Shown here in pieces: positions 1 through 9,102 of a stretch of DNA of 9,102 nt. Source of the DNA: a virus (taxonomy: Duplodnaviria > Heunggongvirae > Uroviricota > Caudoviricetes); the IMG/VR virus record IMGVR_UViG_2547132281_000003, positions 1 through 9,102 of that record. The stretch is one strand, 5' to 3'. Numbering within the stretch: the first letter of the stretch is position 1; every line of letters starts with the position of its first letter. Position numbers and translations under genes: made by a program. The notes under the pieces were generated by a model. The model did not search any database and was not told the DNA's origin. It worked only from the letters and a program-made list of their open reading frames with translations.

Positions 1-648
1 ATGAAACACCGGACCTGGATCACTGAAGCTTTACGTCTTCACTTTGAAGAACATTTACCCCGGGTTGTGGCCGGGCGTCGCCTGGGTGTACCAAAATCAA
101 CAGTTTGTAGTATGTTCGTGCGCTTTCGGAGAGCTGGCCTTTCGTGGCCTTTGCCCGCAGGCATGTCGGAGCAGGAACTTGATGCCTGCCTTTACGGACA
201 ATTTTCCACGGTACCAGTCGTACGTCCTGAAAGCACCGTTATATCCGAAGCCCCCGTGGTAAAAAAACGTCCCCGGCGGCCCAACTTCCCTTATGAGTTT
301 AAAATCGCCTTAGTGGAGCAGTCACTGCAGCCCGGAGCCTGTGTGGCGCAGATCGCCCGGGAAAACGGAATCAACGATAACCTGCTCTTCAACTGGCGCC
401 ATCAATACCGGAAAGGTGGCCTGCTGCCTTCCGGAAAAAATATGCCGGCACTGCTTCCCGTGACGTTAACGCCGGAGCCGGATAATAAAATCCCGGCCCC
501 CGCACAGGAACCAGAGCAGATAAATACACCGTCCGACAGTCTGTGTTGTGAGCTGGTTCTGCCGGCCGGAACTCTCAGGCTTAAAGGTAAACTGACGCCG
601 GCGTTATTACAGACACTTATCCGCGAAATAAAAGGGAGCAGCCACTGA
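1..648 (+). CDS. tnpA: IS66-family accessory protein TnpA (orf1) with an extra ~85-aa N-terminal helix-turn-helix-like region
   Basis: The C-terminal ~130 aa (PNFPYEFKIALVEQSL...ENGINDNLLFNWRHQYRKG) aligns with the orf1 of copy 2 at 2726..3127. Its TGA stop (646-648) overlaps the tnpB ATG (648-650). The N-terminal segment (GRRLGVPKSTVCSMFVRFRRAGLSWPLP) has no counterpart in copy 2. Confidence 0.75.
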   Translation: MKHRTWITEALRLHFEEHLPRVVAGRRLGVPKSTVCSMFVRFRRAGLSWPLPAGMSEQELDACLYGQFSTVPVVRPESTVISEAPVVKKRPRRPNFPYEFKIALVEQSLQPGACVAQIARENGINDNLLFNWRHQYRKGGLLPSGKNMPALLPVTLTPEPDNKIPAPAQEPEQINTPSDSLCCELVLPAGTLRLKGKLTPALLQTLIREIKGSSH

Positions 649-995
649 TGATATCTCTCCCTGCAGGTTCGCGTATCTGGCTGGTTGCAGGTATCACCGA
701 TATGCGAAATGGCTTTAACGGCCTGGCATCAAAAGTTCAGAACGTCCTGAAGGATGACCCGTTCTCCGGACACCTGTTCATCTTCCGCGGACGCCGGGGT
801 GACCAGATAAAAGTGTTGTGGGCTGACAGTGACGGACTGTGCCTCTTCACCAAACGCCTGGAGCGGGGCCGCTTCGTCTGGCCAGTCACCCGTGACGGCA
901 AGGTGCACCTTACTCCGGCTCAGTTATCCATGCTTCTTGAAGGTATCAACTGGAAGCACCCGAAACGAACGGAACGCGCTGGAATCCGCATATAA
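648..995 (+). CDS. tnpB: IS66-family TnpB (orf2), 115 aa
   Basis: Typical IS66 orf2 sequence ([16 protein letters not shown]...LFIFRGRRGDQIKVLW...KRLERGRF). It is highly similar to the 115-aa ORF at 3124..3471 and is start/stop coupled to tnpA. Confidence 0.9.
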   Translation: MISLPAGSRIWLVAGITDMRNGFNGLASKVQNVLKDDPFSGHLFIFRGRRGDQIKVLWADSDGLCLFTKRLERGRFVWPVTRDGKVHLTPAQLSMLLEGINWKHPKRTERAGIRI

Positions 996-1014
996 CCCGT
1001 TGTAAAGTGAGGAT

Positions 1015-2586
1015 ATGGACACCTCACTTGCTCATGAGAACGCCCGCCTGCGGGCACTGTTGCAGACGCAACAGGACACCATCCGCCAGATGGCTGAATA
1101 CAACCGCCTGCTCTCACAGCGGGTGGCGGCTTATGCTTCCGAAATCAACCGGCTGAAGGCGCTGGTTGCGAAACTGCAGCGCATGCAGTTCGGTAAAAGC
1201 TCAGAAAAACTTCGTGCAAAAACCGAACGGCAGATACAGGAAGCACAGGAGCGAATCAGCGCACTTCAGGAAGAAATGGCGGAAACGCTGGGTGAGCAAT
1301 ATGACCCGGTACTGCCATCCGCCCTGCGCCAGTCTTCAGCCCGTAAACCGTTACCGGCCTCACTTCCCCGTGAAACCCGGGTTATCCGGCCGGAAGAGGA
1401 ATGCTGTCCTGCCTGTGGTGGTGAACTCAGTTCTCTGGGATGTGATGTGTCAGAGCAACTGGAGCTTATCAGCAGCGCCTTTAAGGTTATCGAAACACAA
1501 CGTCCGAAACAGGCCTGTTGCCGGTGCGACCATATCGTGCAGGCACCAGTACCTTCAAAACCCATTGCACGCAGTTATGCCGGAGCGGGGCTTCTGGCCC
1601 ATGTTGTCACCGGGAAATATGCAGACCATCTGCCGTTATACCGCCAGTCAGAAATATACCGTCGTCAGGGAGTGGAGCTGAGCCGTGCCACACTGGGGCG
1701 CTGGACAGGTGCTGTTGCTGAACTGCTGGAGCCGCTGTATGACGTCCTGCGCCAGTATGTGCTGATGCCCGGTAAAGTCCATGCTGATGATATCCCCGTC
1801 CCGGTCCAGGAGCCGGGCAGCGGTAAAACCCGGACAGCCCGGCTGTGGGTCTACGTCCGTGATGACCGTAACGCCGGTTCACAGATGCCCCCGGCGGTCT
1901 GGTTCGCGTACAGTCCGGACCGGAAAGGTATCCATCCACAAAATCACCTGGCCGGTTACAGCGGTGTGCTTCAGGCCGATGCTTACGGTGGTTACCGGGC
2001 GTTATACGAATCCGGCAGAATAACGGAAGCCGCGTGTATGGCTCATGCCCGGAGAAAAATCCACGATGTGCATGCAAGAGCGCCCACCGACATCACCACG
2101 GAAGCCCTGCAGCGTATCGGTGAACTGTATGCCATCGAGGCAGAGGTCCGGGGCTGTTCAGCAGAACAGCGTCTGGCGGCAAGAAAAGCCAGAGCCGCGC
2201 CACTGATGCAGTCACTGTATGACTGGATACAGCAACAGATGAAAACACTGTCGCGTCACTCAGATACGGCAAAAGCGTTCGCATACCTGCTGAAACAGTG
2301 GGATGCACTGAACGTGTACTGCAGTAATGGCTGGGTGGAAATCGACAACAACATCGCAGAGAACGCCTTACGGGGAGTGGCCGTAGGCCGGAAAAACTGG
2401 ATGTTCGCGGGTTCCGACAGCGGTGGTGAACATGCGGCGGTGTTGTACTCGCTGATCGGCACATGCCGTCTGAACAATGTGGAGCCAGAAAAGTGGCTGC
2501 GTTACGTCATTGAACATATCCAGGACTGGCCGGCAAACCGGGTACGCGATCTGTTGCCCTGGAAAGTTGATCTGAGCTCTCAGTAA
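1015..2586 (+). CDS. tnpC: IS66-family DDE transposase TnpC (orf3), 523 aa, ISEc8-like
   Basis: N-terminal leucine-zipper-like coiled coil, CxxC...CxxC zinc finger (CCPACGG...CCRCDH), and DDE-region motifs [14 protein letters not shown] and [16 protein letters not shown] Shine-Dalgarno sits at 1007-1011. Confidence 0.92.
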
Positions 2587-2590
2587 ATAT

Positions 2591-2616
2591 CAATACGGTT
2601 CTGACGAGTCGCTTAC
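2591..2616. repeat. Right terminal inverted repeat of IS66 copy 1
   Basis: CAATACGGTTCTGACGAGTCGCTTAC closely matches the right end of copy 2 (5071..5096) and ends with CGCTTAC. Confidence 0.7.
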
Positions 2617-2646
2617 GATTATCAAGCTCAATTATAACTTTTTCCA

Positions 2647-2654
2647 TTTTCCAC
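2647..2654. repeat. Target-site duplication (left copy), TTTTCCAC
   Basis: The 8 bp immediately left of the GTAAGCG terminus at 2655 are identical to the 8 bp immediately right of the CGCTTAC terminus (5097..5104). An 8-bp duplication is characteristic of the IS66 family. Confidence 0.85.
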
Positions 2655-2680
2655 GTAAGCGTACAGCCTGAACCGTCTGG
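2655..2680. repeat. Left terminal inverted repeat of IS66 copy 2
   Basis: Starts GTAAGCGT; it pairs with the reverse complement of 5071..5096 (GTAAGCGTGCAGCAAGAACCGT...) with a few mismatches. Confidence 0.75.
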
Positions 2681-2746
2681 TCAGAATCTGACAAATTAGA
2701 CAAAGTGGTGTCCACCAAATAAGTAGTGGGAACCAAAGTGTCAGAT

Positions 2747-3127
2747 ATGCAGAAAAATGTGACTCCCGGCAGGCGAAAAGGCTGCCCTAATTATCCTCCC
2801 GAATTTAAACAGCAGCTCGTTGCTGCCTCCTGTGAACCCGGGATATCCATCTCAAAACTTGCTCTTGAAAATGGCATTAACGCCAATCTGTTGTTCAAAT
2901 GGCGACAACAATGGCGCGAGGGAAAGCTGCTATTACCTTCTTCAGAGAGCCCCCAGCTACTTCCTGTGACTCTCGATGCAGCTGCCGAACAGCCAGAATC
3001 GCTCGCAGAGGACCCGGAAACCCTCAGTATCAGCTGTGAGGTAACGTTCCGGCACGGGACGCTCCGCTTCAATGGCAATGTCAGCGAAAAGCTCCTGACT
3101 CTGCTGATACAGGAACTGAAGCGATGA
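2747..3127 (+). CDS. tnpA: IS66-family TnpA (orf1); the ORF track begins at GTG 2726, the first ATG is at 2747
   Basis: Conserved orf1 core (YPPEFKQQLVAASCEPGISISKLALENGINANLLFKWRQQWREGK) parallels the copy 1 orf1. The stop and the tnpB start overlap as ATGA (3124-3127). Confidence 0.8.
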   Translation: MQKNVTPGRRKGCPNYPPEFKQQLVAASCEPGISISKLALENGINANLLFKWRQQWREGKLLLPSSESPQLLPVTLDAAAEQPESLAEDPETLSISCEVTFRHGTLRFNGNVSEKLLTLLIQELKR

Positions 3128-3471
3128 TCCCGTTACCTTCCGGGACCAAAATTTGGCTGGTTGCCGGTATCACCGATATGAGAAATGGCTTCAACGGCCT
3201 GGCTGCGAAAGTACAAACGGCGCTGAAAGACGATCCCATGTCCGGCCATGTTTTCATTTTCCGGGGCCGCAGCGGCAGTCAGGTTAAACTGCTGTGGTCC
3301 ACCGGTGACGGACTGTGCCTCCTGACCAAACGGCTGGAGCGTGGGCGCTTCGCCTGGCCGTCAGCCCGTGATGGCAAAGTGTTCCTTACGCAGGCGCAGC
3401 TGGCGATGCTGCTGGAAGGTATCGACTGGCGACAGCCCAAGCGGTTGCTGACCTCCCTGACCATGCTGTAA
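3124..3471 (+). CDS. tnpB: IS66-family TnpB (orf2), 115 aa
   Basis: Same length as the copy 1 TnpB and similar over most of it ([18 protein letters not shown]...TKRLERGRF), with its ATG in the ATGA overlap with the tnpA stop. Confidence 0.9.
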
Positions 3472-3496
3472 ATCTCTTTATCCTGGTTGTCACAGA

Positions 3497-3522
3497 ATAA
3501 GCCCGGTAAAATACGGGCTTAT
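3497..3522 (+). promoter_or_regulatory. Stem-loop overlapping the tnpC start codon of IS copy 2 (possible translational control)
   Basis: ATAAGCCCG (3497-3505) and CGGGCTTAT (3514-3522) are perfect 9-bp inverted arms around an 8-nt loop. The second arm contains the AT of the tnpC ATG (3521-3523), and no obvious Shine-Dalgarno precedes it. Confidence 0.4.
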
Positions 3523-5059
3523 GAACGACATCTCTTCTGACGACATCTTCCTGCTGAAACAGCGCCTGGCCGAACAGGAAGCGCTGATCCACGCCCTGCA
3601 GGAAAAGCTGAGCAACCGGGAGCGCGAAATAGACCATCTGCAGGCGCAGCTGGATAAACTCCGCCGGATGAACTTCGGCAGTCGTTCCGAAAAAGTCTCC
3701 CGCCGTATCGCACAAATGGAAGCCGATCTGAACCGGCTTCAGAAAGAGAGCGATACGCTGACTGGTAGGGTGTATGACCCGGCTGTACAGCGTCCGTTGC
3801 GTCAGACCCGCACCCGTAAGCCGTTCCCTGAATCACTACCCCGTGACGAAAAGCGACTGTTGCCTGCGGCGCCGTGCTGCCCGAACTGCGGCGGTTCACT
3901 GAGCTATCTGGGCGAGGATACCGCCGAACAGCTGGAGTTGATGCGTAGTGCCTTCCGGGTTATCCGGACGGTACGGGAAAAACATGCCTGTACTCAGTGC
4001 GATGCCATCGTGCAGGCACCTGCACCTTCGCGGCCCATCGAGCGGGGTATCGCCGGACCGGGGCTGCTGGCCCGCGTGCTGACCTCGAAGTATGCAGAGC
4101 ACACCCCGCTGTATCGCCAGTCAGAAATATACGGCCGGCAAGGTGTGGAGCTGAGCCGTTCACTGCTGTCGGGCTGGGTGGATGCATGCTGCCGGCTGCT
4201 GTCTCCGCTGGAAGAGGCGCTTCATGGCTATGTCATGACTGACGGCAAACTCCATGCCGATGATACCCCGGTCCAGGTACTGCTGCCGGGTAATAAGAAG
4301 ACGAAGACCGGGCGGTTGTGGGCGTATGTTCGTGATGACCGCAATGCCGGGTCAGCGTTGGCACCTGCAGTGTGGTTCGCTTACAGCCCGGACAGAAAAG
4401 GCATCCATCCGCAGACTCATCTTGCCTGCTTCAGCGGTGTGCTGCAAGCGGATGCGTACGCCGGGTTCAACGAGCTGTATCGCAATGGTGGGATAACGGA
4501 AGCTGCCTGCTGGGCTCATGCCCGCCGAAAGATCCACGATGTGCACGTCCGCATCCCGTCAGCACTGACGGAAGAAGCCCTGGAGCAGATCGGTCAGTTG
4601 TACGCCATAGAGGCGGATATAAGGGGAATGCCGGCAGAGCAGCGGCTTGCTGAACGTCAGCGAAAAACGAAACCGCTGTTGAAATCCCTGGAAAGCTGGT
4701 TGCGTGAAAAGATGAAAACCCTGTCGCGACACTCAGAACTGGCGAAAGCGTTCGCATACGCCCTGAACCAGTGGCCGGCGCTGACGTACTATGCAGATGA
4801 TGGCTGGGCTGAGGCGGACAATAACATCGCTGAAAATGCGTTGCGGATGGTCAGTCTGGGCCGCAAAAACTACCTGTTCTTCGGTTCGGATCATGGAGGA
4901 GAGCGGGGAGCGCTGCTGTACAGCCTGATCGGGACGTGCAAACTGAACGGAGTGGAGCCAGAAAGCTACCTCCGCTATGTCCTTGACGTCATAGCCGACT
5001 GGCCGATAAACCGGGTCGGCGAACTGCTCCCCTGGCGCGTAGCACTGCCGACTGAATAA
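3521..5059 (+). CDS. tnpC: IS66-family DDE transposase TnpC (orf3), 512 aa
   Basis: Coiled-coil N-terminus, zinc finger (CCPNCGG...CTQCD), and motifs [14 protein letters not shown] and [10 protein letters not shown]. It is collinear with the copy 1 TnpC but clearly divergent from it. Confidence 0.92.
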
Positions 5060-5070
5060 CACATCCCCGT

Positions 5071-5096
5071 CAATACGGTTCTTGCTGCACGCTTAC
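5071..5096. repeat. Right terminal inverted repeat of IS66 copy 2
   Basis: CAATACGGTTCTTGCTGCACGCTTAC; ends with CGCTTAC and is followed directly by the TTTTCCAC duplication. Confidence 0.75.
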
Positions 5097-5104
5097 TTTT
5101 CCAC
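5097..5104. repeat. Target-site duplication (right copy), TTTTCCAC
   Basis: Identical to 2647..2654. Confidence 0.85.
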
Positions 5105-5197
5105 CAACCTGTCCAACTTTAAAAAGTTACTTTTAAGTATATGATAAACATAGTTTATTAAACGTGATCCACTACTTTTAATGAAGAATATTCCCCA

Positions 5198-5233
5198 AAA
5201 CAGAAAGCCCCTCGACTGAGGGGCTTTCTGTTT
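5198..5233 (-). terminator. Intrinsic (potentially bidirectional) terminator hairpin immediately downstream of ogr
   Basis: AAACAGAAAGCCCCTC-GACT-GAGGGGCTTTCTGTTT is a perfect 16-bp inverted repeat with a 4-nt loop and a GC-rich stem, flanked by A-rich and T-rich runs. It lies 4 nt beyond the ogr stop. Confidence 0.75.
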
Positions 5234-5237
5234 GTAA

Positions 5238-5456
5238 TTACATCCACATAATTTGCTGCCCTGACGGCAACGGGTGCGGCCTCACGGCGTGGACTTCTCC
5301 CGGCTTCACGATGTATCGCTGTACCGACTCATAAGTGATGAACGTGGCGCTGCAATTCACGTTCTGGCACTGGTGATAACGCTCTTTTGTCGTGTCAGTG
5401 ATATAGCGACTTGTACGCGCATGTGCGGCATGCTGGCATAAAGGACAATGAAACAT
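5238..5456 (-). CDS. ogr: Ogr/Delta-family zinc-finger late-gene transcriptional activator, 72 aa
   Basis: MFHCPLCQHAAHARTSRYITDTTKERYHQCQNVNCSATF... matches phage P2 Ogr as I remember it, with the four zinc-binding Cys. A GGAAGAGG Shine-Dalgarno precedes the ATG at 5456. The 99-aa ORF in the track (start 5537) is an upstream in-frame extension. Confidence 0.93.
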   Translation of the reverse strand: MFHCPLCQHAAHARTSRYITDTTKERYHQCQNVNCSATFITYESVQRYIVKPGEVHAVRPHPLPSGQQIMWM

Positions 5457-5536
5457 CGCGAGCACCTCTTCCGGTTTTGTTAATGGTGCCATTTTATTTA
5501 ATTTATCCTTATAAAACAAACAGATAAAACAAAGCA
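5457..5536 (-). promoter_or_regulatory. Probable ogr promoter and ribosome-binding region (D-ogr intergenic)
   Basis: AT-rich 80-bp spacer between the D stop and the ogr start, with TTGTTT...TATAAG-like elements on the minus strand. This is a by-eye assignment only. Confidence 0.35.
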
Positions 5537-6700
5537 TTAATCATCATCTTCTGTTTCGTACTCCACATCAGAAAGCCTGACCTCAAGCTCTAAGGACGTC
5601 GTGAAGCCGCTATTATTCAGAAAATGTGTCACCTTAGTGATTGTCCAGTCCTGCTCGTCTATGACGCGCTTAAAGCCTGACACTCTGACCGGTGTTTCCG
5701 TGTAAATATCAGCACGACCAGTGGCAAGGCTGATGGAGAACTCCGCAACGCCCCGTTGCAGTTTATCCCACTTCGCCTGAGCGGCGCGCATGGCCTGCGC
5801 TTTCGTGGCATATACCGTAGTCAGGGCAAAAACGTTGTCAGCCTCACCGGCCATGTATTCACCTTCGCGCGCTTCCGGTACTTTTGGCGCTTTCTTCTGC
5901 GTGACCGGTTTTGCTTTCGGGTGCTCCAGTGCGCGCAGGTGTTTTTCTTTCTTTTTGCGTTTCAGTTTTACCTTCTGCTTTTGTGGTTTCGGGTCTTTGG
6001 TGTGTAACCACTTTGCCGTTACGCCGGTATAGGCTCCACGGTCAGCAATCGCAAAATGATGGCGGTCGCCGTCGCTGCGGGTTATGGTGACCTGCGGGAT
6101 TTTTTTACCGCTGGCCGTCACCCCCTGCCCCGCTTTGAGAAACAACAGTTTTCCCATTTTTACCGAGACCTCACCGCCGTTGCGTTCTGCAAGACGGGTC
6201 AGGAATTTCGCATCAGACTCCTGCGACTGGTCGATGTGCGGGATTTTAATTCCGGCCAGTGACGGAGCGACACTGGCTTCCAGCCTGTTACGGGAGGCTA
6301 TCGCCTCAACAATCGCACCGAGCGTGGTGTCATGCCAGGAGCCTTCCCGGCGGGAATTGAGCGTCCCGCGAAAATCTGCACTCCGGGCGCGGATGGTGAC
6401 CACATCCGGAGCGCCCCGGTGTTCAACCTCATCAACGGTAAATTTCCCTTTGCATACCAGGGCAAAACCTTTCCAGCCGATATAAACCGTCAGGACAGCG
6501 CCACGAACCGGCAGCCCGACCTGCCCGTCGGCATCGTTCAGTTCAATATCAAGCTGGTCAGCCTCAAAGCCCCGGTTATCCGTCAGGGTCATACTCATCA
6601 GACGGTCGCTGATATTGCCGGTAATATCCCTGCTGTCGAGCATCAGCATGTAATCCGGCGTCAGCGTACTGCCTGCATCAAATGTCAGCGCATCCAGCAT
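5537..6700 (-). CDS. D: P2 gpD-like tail protein (late control gene D), 387 aa, apparently full length
   Basis: Length and sequence match P2 gpD as I remember it (MLDALTFDAGSTLTPDYMLMLDSRDITGNISDRLMSMTL...). Its start overlaps the stop of the upstream U-like ORF (TAATG). Confidence 0.92.
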   Translation of the reverse strand: MLDALTFDAGSTLTPDYMLMLDSRDITGNISDRLMSMTLTDNRGFEADQLDIELNDADGQVGLPVRGAVLTVYIGWKGFALVCKGKFTVDEVEHRGAPDVVTIRARSADFRGTLNSRREGSWHDTTLGAIVEAIASRNRLEASVAPSLAGIKIPHIDQSQESDAKFLTRLAERNGGEVSVKMGKLLFLKAGQGVTASGKKIPQVTITRSDGDRHHFAIADRGAYTGVTAKWLHTKDPKPQKQKVKLKRKKKEKHLRALEHPKAKPVTQKKAPKVPEAREGEYMAGEADNVFALTTVYATKAQAMRAAQAKWDKLQRGVAEFSISLATGRADIYTETPVRVSGFKRVIDEQDWTITKVTHFLNNSGFTTSLELEVRLSDVEYETEDDD

Positions 6701-7047
6701 TATCCCGCCCCCGTCATACCCGTGAATCTGGTCGCCATACTGCCAGCCTTACCGATGAGCGATTCCGCCTGTTTACCGATATCGCCATAAAGCGCGGCCA
6801 GTGATTCATCAACGCGGGTGAGTGACAGCGTAAAATCAATTTTCCGGGGTGTGCCGTCTGCAAAGAAAATACTCCCTGTTTCACTCACCCTGCTGATGAC
6901 ATACATGCCGTAAATCATGCCGGTGCCATCCAGCAACGGCCACGCCCGTCCCTCCTCTGCCATCAGCCTGAGCGTGGTCATCGTCAGCTTGCCGCCGGTC
7001 AGTTCGGGATAAAGCACACCGGCCAGCGTCATGTTTTCCTCACCCAC
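6700..7047 (-). CDS. U: P2 gpU-like tail protein, probably N-terminally truncated (possible pseudogene)
   Basis: The C-terminal ~110 aa (TLAGVLYPELTGGKLTMTTLRLMAEEGRAWPLLDGTGMIYG...) resemble gpU. The track start is a GTG at 7047; the first ATG is at 7030-7032. The same frame stays open upstream to a stop at 7108-7110. My recollection is that P2 gpU is about 159 aa, so roughly 25-50 N-terminal residues appear to be missing. Confidence 0.65.
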   Translation of the reverse strand: MGEENMTLAGVLYPELTGGKLTMTTLRLMAEEGRAWPLLDGTGMIYGMYVISRVSETGSIFFADGTPRKIDFTLSLTRVDESLAALYGDIGKQAESLIGKAGSMATRFTGMTGAG

Positions 7048-7637
7048 ACCGAGAAACTGGTAGGCATCCCGTTTGCAGAATATGCCTGCCTCGTGGTCAT
7101 CTGTCCTTTACGGTATTTTTTCCAGTAAAGCGGGGAAATATTGAAAGCACGTGCAGCGCCAGCAACATGACCATAGAGGTGAGCCTGCGCCTCATCCGTA
7201 AACAGCGATTCTTTCTCGCCATGCGCATCCACCCAGGCATCGCTGAGTTCCTCATACATCATGAAAAGCTGCGATGAGATACGGGCGGCAAACTTTTTCA
7301 GCTCCTTGTCATTCATTCCCGGCAGGCGCGCATAGTGGTCACGCTCAGCCAGAACCCCCATCCACAAAAGCCATGCATCACGCTGTTCAACCGGTCGGTT
7401 ATAAAACGCCTCACGTACAGCGCGATTAAACTCAGGAATGAAAACCCATTTTTCACCGGCACGAGCCTTCGGTTTGCAAGGATCACGCAATTCAATAATT
7501 GGTAATTTATTTGCCTTCACCATTTCACTGACAGCTGTCTTTGGCTTCCCTAATAAATCAGCAAATTTATCCACATGAACCGCATCAAGCGGATACTGAA
7601 TCACATAATTTTCAGCGTCCATATATGGTACCCTCAT
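7029..7637 (-). CDS. cox: Cox-like (P2 excisionase / early-promoter repressor family) N-terminal domain fused to a ~100-aa C-terminal extension of unknown origin, 202 aa
   Basis: Residues ~10-97 (YPLDAVHVDKFADLLGKPKTAVSEMVKANKLPIIELRDP...ARAGEKWVFIPEFN...QRDAWLLWMG) parallel P2 Cox (91 aa) as I remember it. Residues ~100-202 have no match I recognise. It is divergent from the C repressor gene, and its TGA overlaps the first ATG of the U fragment as ATGA. Confidence 0.6.
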   Translation of the reverse strand: MRVPYMDAENYVIQYPLDAVHVDKFADLLGKPKTAVSEMVKANKLPIIELRDPCKPKARAGEKWVFIPEFNRAVREAFYNRPVEQRDAWLLWMGVLAERDHYARLPGMNDKELKKFAARISSQLFMMYEELSDAWVDAHGEKESLFTDEAQAHLYGHVAGAARAFNISPLYWKKYRKGQMTTRQAYSANGMPTSFSVWVRKT

Positions 7638-7758
7638 AGGATCCAGCCCTTTCTAAACCACTCAAAACCGTTTAGACGCTGGTTTATTCTCAAATCAATG
7701 GAACCTATATAGGTTCCAGTTTTGAGGGAATTTAGTCCCTATATAGGCACCATGTCAA
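7638..7758. promoter_or_regulatory. Immunity switch region between the divergent cox-like and C genes, with candidate promoters and operators
   Basis: AT-rich 121-bp spacer containing an 18-bp perfect palindrome GGAACCTATATAGGTTCC (7700-7717), a second copy of its CCTATATAGG core (7738-7747), a related CCTCATAGG at the cox start (7632-7640), and a TAAACCA...TGGTTTA inverted pair (7653-7686). Confidence 0.5.
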
Positions 7759-8052
7759 ATGAAATTAAGCGAAAAGATTAAGGCCTTGCGTGAGGCTGAA
7801 GGGCTAAGCCAATCAAAATTCTGTGAAATCATAGAGTTACCGCTAAGCACACTTAAAAAATATGAAGGAGGAAACTTTGAACCCGGTGGCACAGCTTTGC
7901 TAAAAATCACTATGCATCCCACATTCCAAAAATATGCTCTATGGCTTATGACAGATAAAACCGCGCCGGACGCAGGACAAATCGCACCGGCTCTCGCGCA
8001 CATTGGGCCAGAGTCAACAGAGTCCAACCACTCCGCGAAAAGGATTGGCTAA
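7759..8052 (+). CDS. C: P2 C-type immunity repressor (helix-turn-helix), 97 aa
   Basis: LSEKI...LSQ..., the helix-turn-helix region, and the C-terminal ...TPxFxKYxLWxMT...APxxGQIAPALAH... segment match P2 repressor C as I remember it. It lies directly upstream of int, as in P2. Confidence 0.85.
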   Translation: MKLSEKIKALREAEGLSQSKFCEIIELPLSTLKKYEGGNFEPGGTALLKITMHPTFQKYALWLMTDKTAPDAGQIAPALAHIGPESTESNHSAKRIG

Positions 8053-8121
8053 CTCTATATAAAGATTACATTTTCACCATTTGCTACCAAGATGGTGAAT
8101 ACAGCGCCGGAGGGCTTTCTT

Positions 8122-9102
8122 ATGGCAATTAAGAAGCTCGATGATGGTCGCTATGAAGTGGACATTAGACCTCGCGGTCGCGACGGAAAACGCATCCGCA
8201 GGAAATTCGAAAGAAAAGCTGAAGCACTAGCATTTGAGCGATACACAATCGCCAATGCCAGTCAGAAAGAATGGGGAGGCCAGCGAGCAGACCGCCGGAC
8301 TTTGAGTGAGTTGCTGGACATCTGGTGGAAATATCACGGGCAAAACCACGAGCATGGAACAAAAGAGTTTAATCATCTACTCAAAACCATCAGCGGCATA
8401 GGTGATATACCAGTGAGCAGGATGAGCAAAAGGGCTTTGATGGATTATCGTTCCATGCGACTACGTGATGGTATCAGTGCCGCAACGATAAACCGTGACA
8501 TGTACCGATTATCCGGCATGTTCACAAAATTAATTCAATTGGATGAATTTTCCGGGCAACACCCAATTCACGGACTGCCGCCACTGGCGGAGGCCAACCC
8601 TGAAATGACGTTCCTGGAAAAAGCAGAAATCGAAAAACTGTTAAATGTTTTGGCTGGTGATGACTTACTTGTCGCGCTTTTATGTCTGAGCACTGGAGGA
8701 AGATGGACGGAAGTTGCCACGCTAAAACCAGCACAGATTACAAATTGCAGGGTTACCTTCCTGAAAACCAAAAACGGTAAAAAGCGAACCGTGCCGATTT
8801 CTGAGGAACTGGAGAAAAAAGTTAAAGAGGAGGCCAGCGCCAAATTATTCAAAGTTGATTATGAGAAATTTTGCGGGATTTTACGCAGAGTGAAACCTGA
8901 TATACCACCCAATCAGGCAACCCACATCCTGCGGCATACATTCGCAAGCCATTTCATGATGAATGGGGGCAATATAATCGCACTGCAACAGATTCTGGGA
9001 CATGCGAGCATTCAGCAGACGATGGCCTATGCGCACCTTGCGCCTGACTATCTGCAAAATGCCGTCGCTCTGAATCCACTAAAAGGCGGAGTGACGTTAT
9101 AA
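8122..9102 (+). CDS. int: P2-type tyrosine integrase (site-specific recombinase)
   Basis: MAIKKLDDGRYEVDIRP... matches the P2 Int N-terminus as I remember it. The catalytic region has HxLRH and a C-terminal Tyr (ATHILRHTFASHF...QTMAYAHL). A GGAGGG Shine-Dalgarno lies 7 nt upstream of ATG 8122; the track ORF starts 30 nt earlier at 8092. The stop is the last codon of the window. Confidence 0.93.
   Translation: MAIKKLDDGRYEVDIRPRGRDGKRIRRKFERKAEALAFERYTIANASQKEWGGQRADRRTLSELLDIWWKYHGQNHEHGTKEFNHLLKTISGIGDIPVSRMSKRALMDYRSMRLRDGISAATINRDMYRLSGMFTKLIQLDEFSGQHPIHGLPPLAEANPEMTFLEKAEIEKLLNVLAGDDLLVALLCLSTGGRWTEVATLKPAQITNCRVTFLKTKNGKKRTVPISEELEKKVKEEASAKLFKVDYEKFCGILRRVKPDIPPNQATHILRHTFASHFMMNGGNIIALQQILGHASIQQTMAYAHLAPDYLQNAVALNPLKGGVTL

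Follow-up and report, generated by a model that had tools for sequence, protein, structure and literature searches.

Paired palindromic elements as probable repressor operators in the immunity switch of an L-413C-class P2-like prophage remnant

INTRODUCTION

In the accessible literature, operators of P2-type lysis/lysogeny switches have been mapped only for the phages P2, P2 Hy dis, and WPhi. The operator of WPhi (immunity class III), which is known from mutagenesis, electrophoretic mobility shift assays, and surface plasmon resonance, consists of 10-bp half-sites that lie 34 bp apart from centre to centre and flank the −10 element of the early promoter, Pe (PMC1904268). P2 (class I) carries 8-bp nonpalindromic repeats 22 bp apart, which also flank the Pe −10, whereas the two repeated half-sites of P2 Hy dis (class II) flank the −35 (PMC1904268). 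Here, we describe a related locus in a 9,102-nucleotide stretch of viral DNA (IMG/VR record IMGVR_UViG_2547132281_000003, positions 1 to 9,102), referred to in its entirety as the window. The window is a heavily deleted P2-like prophage beside two IS66-family elements, and between its genes for a P2-type repressor, C, and a Cox-like protein it contains two palindromes that share the core CCTATATAGG. Judged from sequence comparison, these palindromes very probably are the operator pair of C (O1 at 7735 to 7750 and O2 at 7700 to 7717) in a P2-type lysis/lysogeny switch of the L-413C class.

How P2-type repressors read their sites is a puzzle of the P2 C structure. In the crystal, P2 C forms a symmetric dimer set for two consecutive major grooves, with a helix spacing like that of the palindrome binder P22 c2, and its authors needed to postulate reading of the 8-bp repeat by a single monomer (PMC2995052). 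P2 C is structurally closest to such palindrome binders, which include C.Esp1396I, a protein that binds as a tetramer to two palindromic sites (PMC2995052). Nonpalindromic, direct-repeat half-sites have nevertheless been regarded as a trait of the P2 C family (Massad 2010). Phage 186 is likewise P2-like and has convergent promoters and inverted-repeat operators; however, its CI is a two-domain protein of 196 aa unrelated to C, and its switch involves distal operators and a CII function (PMC1904263, PMC3448106).

RESULTS

Two copies of a palindromic core between C and cox

The elements and the two genes that enclose them are as follows.

7700 to 7717: site A, proposed operator O2, the perfect 18-bp palindrome GGAACCTATATAGGTTCC, with its core CCTATATAGG at 7704 to 7713
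7735 to 7750: site B, proposed operator O1, GTCCCTATATAGGCAC, with its core CCTATATAGG at 7738 to 7747
7759 to 8052, plus strand: C repressor, 97 aa
7029 to 7637, minus strand: cox-like open reading frame (ORF), a Cox::gpA' fusion of 202 aa (ATG at 7637 or 7622)

Both sites lie between the start of C (ATG at 7759, plus strand) and that of the cox-like ORF (ATG at 7622 or 7637, minus strand), and the two cores were the only matches to CCTATATAGG in the window. No third match was present on either strand of the 9.1 kb when one mismatch was tolerated. The cores are separated by 24 bp (7714 to 7737), equal to 34 bp from start to start, which confirmed the initial annotation of an 18-bp perfect palindrome and a second 10-bp core, 24 bp apart, between divergent C and cox-like genes. 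Self-complementarity was complete over the core (10/10) and over site A (18/18), while the 16-bp palindrome of site B was symmetric in seven of its eight pairs, with one pair mismatched. Beyond the core, the two sites were read as sharing the pattern G-N2-CCTATATAGG-N2-C. When site A was compared with site B, the direct and inverted readings tied at 12/16 each.

The chance level for CCTATATAGG was 0.12 expected copies, and two or more copies occurred in 2 of 200 shuffles. CCTATATAGG was likewise confined to the two equivalent places in the 31.2-kb genome of a complete phage from this class. The 76-bp switch segment (7686 to 7761) was found once per genome in 419 of 5,426 complete Escherichia coli genomes; among these ∼419 prophages, 414 had an identical site A segment and 406 an identical site B segment. 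Both cores were also intact in 35 of 36 IMG/VR loci, the sole exception being the sequence of phage R18C. This near-invariance of the site segments in prophages points to purifying selection. Chance origin of the palindrome pair was ruled out by the shuffles together with the conservation in 419 E. coli genomes. A full-text literature search for CCTATATAGG combined with "phage" returned nothing relevant.

Assignment of the repressor to the L-413C class

The product of the C gene matched the P2 C structures 2XCJ/2L49 over residues 3 to 97 (phmmer, E = 1.9e-21) and was 43% identical to P2 C (BLASTP, E = 7e-30), 56% identical to WPhi C, and 100% identical to the C protein of Yersinia phage L-413C. 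Its helix-turn-helix domain (Pfam HTH_3) spans residues 7 to 50, the recognition-helix region reads LSTLKKYEGGN, and the segment GQIAPALAH was invariant in an alignment of C, WPhi C, and L-413C C. By these similarities, the protein is assigned to the P2-type C immunity repressor family. Since phages whose C proteins are at least 95% identical constitute one immunity group (PMC3448106), the identities place the locus in an L-413C-type class, distinct from those of P2 (I) and WPhi (III). A distinct immunity type had also been suggested in the initial annotation, and the site sequences differ from those of P2 and WPhi. Membership in the P2, Hy dis, and WPhi immunity classes was ruled out by C identity together with site sequence or geometry, and a 186-type switch by the 97-aa P2-type C and by the lack of distal motif copies in the 31.2-kb class phage.

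The same switch is widely distributed. The exact C protein was present on at least 1000 contigs, and positions 7356 to 9102 of the window were 99.1 to 99.9% identical to Yersinia phage L-413C, R18C, FSL SP-004, vB_YpM_50, P2_4B2, T22 phage (the cdt-carrying "P2" of E. coli O157:H43 strain T22), and others. C showed no differences from that of the six named phages, the C-cox spacer differed at 0 to 3 positions, and the integrase was 99 to 100% identical to L-413C-class integrases. We also noted that the complete same-class phage from O157:H43 T22 (L098; KC618326.1) carries the cytolethal distending toxin genes cdtABC at 6058 to 8200; the L-413C immunity type thus occurs on toxin-converting P2-like phages.

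Predicted promoters and comparison with studied switches

A scan of positions 7500 to 7900 yielded only one sigma-70-like site, on the minus strand (TTGACA-18-TAAATT; 10/12 matches). Together with a region assigned by alignment, the predicted promoter elements are as follows.

7758 to 7753, minus strand: predicted Pe −35, TTGACA, abutting the C start codon
7734 to 7729, minus strand: predicted Pe −10, TAAATT, between the two sites
7629 to 7641, plus strand: putative Pc region, with TACCCT as −10 and a start near 7641, by alignment to WPhi (low confidence)

The predicted Pe reads toward cox and has its predicted start near 7722. Relative to this start, site B occupies approximately −28 to −13 (core, approximately −25 to −16), in the −35/−10 spacer, and site A approximately +6 to +23 (core, approximately +10 to +19), so that the two sites bracket the predicted Pe −10. 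This −10 aligned with the −10 region of WPhi, GGGAATATA, and the alignment of the window with WPhi ran through the −10 (GGGAAT[T/A]TA), the −35 (TGTCAAATG), and a Pc-proximal GATCCAG / TACCCT block. TGTCAA was kept directly before the C ATG in nearly all C-class loci, and the annotated Pe −35 of P2 lies at the equivalent place.

The WPhi transcripts from Pe and Pc share an overlap of 82 nt, and the mapped Pc start lies 60 nt from O2 (PMC1904263). The putative Pc block of the window, GGTACCCTCATAGGATCCAG, aligned to GTTACCCTTATTAGATCCAG of WPhi, which would put the Pc start of the window, with low confidence, near 7641 and ∼60 bp to the left of site A. The sigma-70 scan of 7500 to 7900 gave no consensus promoter at 7629 to 7641. 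The Pc-proximal half of the intergenic region also contains a perfect 7-bp inverted repeat, TCTAAAC ... GTTTAGA, at 7652 to 7676. Its GTTTAGA(C) resembles the P2 operator half-site GTTTAGAT, which loci L008, L010, and L011 carry exactly at the equivalent place; the repeat may belong to the Cox target or be coincidental.

The layout of the locus is that of a P2-type switch, in which C and int on the plus strand stand face to face with an ORF encoding a Cox domain on the minus strand, and the predicted Pe toward cox is overlapped by two copies of a repeated element. The earlier assignment to a P2-type immunity region of a prophage remnant, made from a P2-C-like repressor, was thus borne out by the C family match and by C-int facing cox. 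The likeness is closest to WPhi, with which the window shares two 10-bp elements 34 bp apart flanking the Pe −10 (GTCACCAATA at 1364 to 1373 and 1398 to 1407 of locus L002, at homologous positions), the −35 abutting the C start codon, alignable Pc-proximal sequence, and the integrase and attachment-site type, next to cpxP. In contrast to the self-complementary core of the window, the WPhi half-site is nonpalindromic and directly repeated, and the helix region of WPhi C reads LGTVKNYESGH instead of LSTLKKYEGGN; moreover, the window operator is proposed from sequence, whereas that of WPhi is known from experiment. P2 (2XCJ) shares the protein family, the two sites flanking the Pe −10, the face-to-face Pe and Pc, and the order of C-int versus cox, but differs in the length and spacing of its repeats and in a transcript overlap of ∼35 nt versus ∼82 nt (PMC1904263). 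P2 Hy dis likewise has a P2-type repressor and two repeated half-sites, but its C is 63% identical to P2 C, compared with 43% for the C of the window, and its half-sites lie differently with respect to the promoter. A contrast drawn earlier between direct repeats in P2 and inverted repeats in 186 does not apply here, as the copies are laid out like the direct-repeat half-sites of WPhi, only the unit is self-complementary, and the repressor is of the P2 type.

Sites follow C across repressor classes

For comparison across classes, 80 related loci were reduced to 17 C classes (<90% identity). At each locus, the 16-mer just upstream of the −35 was compared with its best match, in either orientation, in the same locus. 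In all 17 classes, the best match to this site B 16-mer fell 29 to 34 bp upstream in its own locus, and the two sites were more similar within a locus (mean, 12/16) than between classes (9.35/16; permutation P = 5e-5). The position rule in every class and the permutation result indicated that the two-site architecture is general and that the sites of one phage evolve together.

Recombinant switch modules allowed the contributions of C and Cox to be separated. Loci L059, L070, L072, L078, and L081 have in common a 110-bp Pc/cox-proximal module that is 95 to 100% identical, and Cox is at least 93% identical among the four of them that yielded a Cox sequence, L059, L072, L078, and L081. The C proteins of these five loci were 62 to 79% identical in most pairs and 91% identical for L059 and L081, and each locus has its own sites; the breakpoint of the shared cox-proximal module lies just left of site A. 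Conversely, C is 98% and the site regions are 96% identical between L007 and L070, while the lytic-side protein of L007 is only ∼30% identical to Cox of L059, L072, L078, and L081. In L008 (Enterobacter) and L011 (Dryocola), the lytic-side protein is unrelated and there is no Cox homologue, yet near-identical palindromes (GGAACCTATATGGGTTCC / CCCTATATAGGTTCC) are kept with a related C, and the recognition-helix region of this C is almost the same as in the window (PLSTLKKYETGKF versus PLSTLKKYEGGNF). The sites therefore co-vary with C and not with Cox.

Some correspondence was seen between helix and site types, which we regard as suggestive only: helices of the form ..TL.KYE.. went with CCTAnATAGG-type palindromes, ..T[LV]KNYE.. 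with GTCAC / GGTTCT-type sites, and ..TLKK[LI]E.. with GGTTC-N7-8-GAACC. The relative orientation of the two sites, compared over the 75 bp upstream of C, also depended on the class. It was direct in WPhi (L002) and L072 (11/16 direct versus 8/16 inverted) and inverted, with an asymmetric 16- to 18-bp site, in L007, L064, L073, and L061 (in L064, 13/16 inverted versus 9/16 direct), and it was indeterminate in the window, L008, L011, and L057 because their sites are palindromic. These sequences suggest that the second site was turned around in the course of C-family evolution.

Natural switch mutants

The exceptions to the otherwise almost invariant intergenic region were plaque-isolated phages. 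R18C (L085), which has been described as virulent in a paper that is silent on repressor and operators (PMC6823313), has a C identical to that of the window and differs from it in the intergenic region at exactly two positions, one per core: 7713 G>A (core A) and 7739 C>A (core B). Given 16 differences over 1747 bp, the probability that both 10-bp cores would each receive one change by chance is ∼0.008 (Poisson estimate). L-413C (L001), a clear-plaque mutant (PMC3448106), also has an intact C and carries three changes: 7701 G>T, which replaces the G conserved at −3 of site A; 7730 A>G, in the Pe −10; and 7747 G>T, at the last G of core B. Compared with its closest backbone, P2_4B2, these switch changes make up three of the four private changes of L-413C in 1747 bp. 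HQ103 (L087), which was propagated on Yersinia pestis, has wild-type sites and a truncated C (stop at codon 61).

In P2, Hy dis, and WPhi, repression stays intact when one half-site is mutated and is reduced or abolished when both are mutated (PMC1904268). The double hits in R18C and L-413C match this rule for phages that escape their own repressor, and we infer that the site mutations cause the two phenotypes. R18C-like and L-413C-like mutants would then be expected to escape the C of the remnant as well.

Resident prophages showed variation of another kind. About one-quarter of the E. coli prophages with the switch (106 of 419) depart from the window somewhere within 7686 to 7761, although the site segments are almost invariant. 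Three sampled variants (L095, L096, and L097, position 444-445) all carried 7729 A>G, by which TAAATT becomes TAAATC and the predicted Pe −10 loses its conserved final T, and one of them also carried 7730 A>G. Promoter-down alleles of this kind may be common in resident prophages.

A conserved hairpin around site A and other readings of the palindromes

Site A is also part of a larger structure.

7689 to 7726: extended imperfect dyad or hairpin with site A at its centre (outer arms CTCAAA / TTTGAG)

The 18-bp palindrome at 7700 to 7717 is the inner stem, or top, of this dyad, which as Pe-strand RNA folds with −16.4 kcal/mol (z = −4.9). Read from the minus strand, it would constitute the 5′ terminus of the predicted Pe transcript, and on the plus strand it lies in the C mRNA leader. 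A hairpin at the same position, right after the Pe −10, was present in 18 of 18 C classes examined (in L002 at 1355 to 1390, with equivalents in L006 to L083), although the stem sequences differ (for example, CCCTCATTGG/CCAATGAGGG, TCCCTAACTATCC/GGATGGTTAGGGA, and CAAAAGG/CCTTTTG). The mean fold z over the 18 classes was −3.7, compared with −1.2 and +0.1 in flanking control segments, and the plus-strand RNA was the more stable one in 13 of the 18. RNAalifold showed changes on both sides in 8 of 10 consensus pairs, but the underlying MAFFT alignment was imperfectly registered, so that the per-class fold z-scores are the more reliable evidence for the hairpin. A terminator scan additionally flagged 7718 to 7699 on the minus strand, with the tail TTGATTTGAG and at approximately +5 to +40 of the early operon; shuffled sequences average 0.4 such sites. 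In WPhi-like classes, the nonpalindromic O2 lies in the hairpin loop, which argues that the hairpin is not simply a product of operator symmetry. The hairpin could act as a 5′ stabiliser of early mRNA, as a structure of the C leader, or as a feature at the DNA level, and the conserved dyad that surrounds O2 might constitute an independent RNA element common to all classes.

These data raise the question whether the 18-bp palindrome exists mainly as the top of a hairpin, be it a Pe-RNA 5′ stem-loop, a C-leader structure, or a weak bidirectional attenuator; in that case, the coincidence with a repressor site would be of secondary nature. The extent of the dyad, its fold on the minus strand, the terminator-like flag, and hairpins with differing stems in 18 classes, including WPhi with its nonpalindromic half-site in the loop, would all fit such a role, as would the greater stability of the plus-strand RNA in most classes. 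It leaves unexplained, however, the second copy at 7738 to 7747, where there is no extended stem, as well as the occurrence of one mutation per copy in virulent phages. The stem is followed by a poor run of T, an essential early operon is unlikely to have an efficient terminator at +40, and symmetric protein sites also gain changes that look compensatory, so that covariation is no proof of an RNA role. We therefore consider a mainly structural role of the palindrome rather unlikely; it may, moreover, coexist with an operator function. A very improbable reading is that the TATATA centres are −10 hexamers and the repeat marks two promoters instead of two operators. The resemblance of TATATA to TATAAT and the expectation of face-to-face promoters in this region speak for it, and the initial annotation had seen a TATA-like −10 candidate in each core. 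That proposal was not upheld, as neither core had a −35 partner at the scan threshold on either strand, the best partner at 17-bp spacing being, in our own reading of the sequence, TTTATT with 3/6 matches, and as the only promoter-like hit has its −10 (7734 to 7729) between the cores. In other classes, the cores become GTCACCAATA, GTTC-N7-GAAC, and the like, which do not resemble a −10 but keep the position, and the sequence homologous to the region of the mapped WPhi Pc start, 60 nt from O2 (PMC1904263), is kept in the window.

Binding of Cox or of a host factor such as IHF, instead of C, is highly improbable as well. Cox acts somewhere in the intergenic region, and its recognition sequence for WPhi-like phages was reportedly left undefined by Liu and Haggard-Ljungquist in 1999. 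Nevertheless, loci with Cox at least 93% identical and Pc-proximal DNA at least 95% identical have sites that differ along with their C proteins, and the two loci without a Cox homologue keep near-identical palindromes with a related C. This segregation of the sites with C across recombinant switch modules led us to reject binding of Cox, and the region contained no match to the IHF consensus WATCAANNNNTTR. The palindromes thus track the C type and are not kept with unrelated repressors, and the earlier view of them as the best operator candidates gained support from the WPhi-like geometry, the co-variation with C, and the natural mutants.

Several points nevertheless weigh against palindromes 7700 to 7717 and 7735 to 7750 as operators of C. 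The 10-bp core alone is too short for two helix-turn-helix contacts on successive major grooves, and the wider symmetry of 16 to 18 bp is perfect only at site A, where the conserved hairpin is a confounding factor. For R18C and L-413C, the phenotypes are those described in the respective papers, and the 7730 change of L-413C, within the −10, does not clearly qualify as an "up" mutation. About one-quarter of the E. coli prophages vary in the switch segment, and all three sampled variants differ at 7729/7730; an error in the −10 assignment would place the sites differently with respect to the promoter. The accessible literature yielded no data on binding, footprints, or transcript starts for the L-413C class.

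Gene content of the prophage remnant

The remaining features of the window are as follows.

1 to 2586: IS66-family element 1, three ORFs
2726 to 5059: IS66-family element 2, three ORFs
5238 to 5537, minus strand: ogr
5537 to 6700, minus strand: gpD
6700 to 7047, minus strand: gpU, N terminus missing
8092 to 9102, plus strand: int, tyrosine integrase (Pfam Int_N and Phage_integrase) of the C-int lysogenic operon; the listed ORF runs to the final base of the window

The two IS66-family elements differ from each other and stand in tandem, each consisting of an HTH_Tnp_1 ORF, a TnpB_IS66 ORF, and a DDE_Tnp_IS66 transposase. The pair directly adjoins ogr, where the prophage attachment junction would be expected. 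At the other side, the int end of intact prophages of the same type adjoins cpxP, which fits the attachment core that L-413C shares with WPhi (PMC3448106).

The cox-like gene of the initial annotation proved to encode a Cox domain (Pfam Phage_Cox, residues 10 to 89) but is not an intact gene, since a Phage_GPA domain follows at residues 106 to 193. Cox residues 1 to ∼89 (7356 to 7622) are joined in frame to an internal piece of gpA (7073 to 7354), followed by the truncated gpU region. Comparison with an intact E. coli prophage (L004) located the first deletion: window positions 7356 to 7800 were 100% identical to L004 positions 3883 to 4327, starting 6 nt inside the cox end, and 7073 to 7354 were 100% identical to 1501 to 1782, inside gpA. 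At this junction, near 7355, ∼2.1 kb has been lost, comprising orf78, B, orf80-83, and the 5′ portion of A. Another deletion, with its junction near 7048 to 7073, fused the gpA fragment to gpU without approximately its first 40 residues. The remnant lacks all replication, lysis, and head genes and most tail genes. When this deletion architecture was sought in complete E. coli genomes, no record covered at least 80% of positions 5000 to 9102. C, both sites, and the Pc-proximal DNA of the remnant are identical to those of intact prophages, and the only private change in its switch region is synonymous and lies in cox, at 7533 (by codon count).

DISCUSSION

The locus described here is an ordinary, widespread immunity switch with one unusual trait, namely, palindromic sites where its studied relatives have direct repeats. 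We propose that one symmetric C dimer would bind each 16- to 18-bp palindrome through the consensus G-N2-CCTATATAGG-N2-C, so that two dimers would sit 34 bp, or approximately three helical turns, apart on either side of the Pe −10. The dimers might cooperate with DNA bending, as has been measured for P2 and WPhi (PMC1904263), and the pair would keep RNA polymerase off Pe, so that Cox and the early lytic genes would stay off. The same C would repress Pe of an incoming phage with the same operators and thereby confer superinfection immunity. As C, the operators, and the Pc region of the remnant are identical to those of intact prophages, expression of C in the remnant and immunity to wild-type members of the class appear plausible.

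Since each site is a palindrome of 16 to 18 bp, one dimer could read it symmetrically, and the asymmetry that had to be proposed for P2 C would not be needed. The arrangement proposed here, with one dimer per ∼18-bp palindrome and two adjacent, cooperative sites, is similar to that of P22 c2 and C.Esp1396I; however, the sites of C.Esp1396I are spaced by 15 bp instead of 34 bp. The sites of the window do not show the nonpalindromic, direct-repeat half-sites ascribed to the P2 C family. Tentatively, recognition of direct repeats might not be a property of the whole family, and a large clade might instead have a full palindromic operator of 16 to 20 bp for each "half-site," bound by one symmetric dimer each. 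Such a clade would comprise the L-413C class together with relatives from Enterobacter, Dryocola, Hafnia, and Symbiopectobacterium, with a recognition helix of the form ..TL.KYE.G...

The switch sequence itself is already present in hundreds of genomes and approximately a dozen phage records, and the repeats of the L-413C class may already have been drawn by Karlsson (2006). What the present analysis provides is a candidate operator assignment for a very common immunity class of P2-like phages in E. coli, found in ∼8% of complete genomes. Site recognition by the symmetric P2 C dimer is a question to which the palindromic unit is relevant: if the reading of a clade with palindromic operators holds, the classes with direct, inverted, and palindromic sites would constitute a natural series for studying how a symmetric dimer reads asymmetric sites, the puzzle posed by the P2 C structure. 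Mutations in both operators would likewise account for the virulent behaviour of R18C and the plague-diagnostic phage L-413C, whose repressor genes are intact. The basis of these phenotypes matters for phage diagnosis or therapy and for predicting which hosts, by carrying the remnant or a prophage of this class, would be immune.

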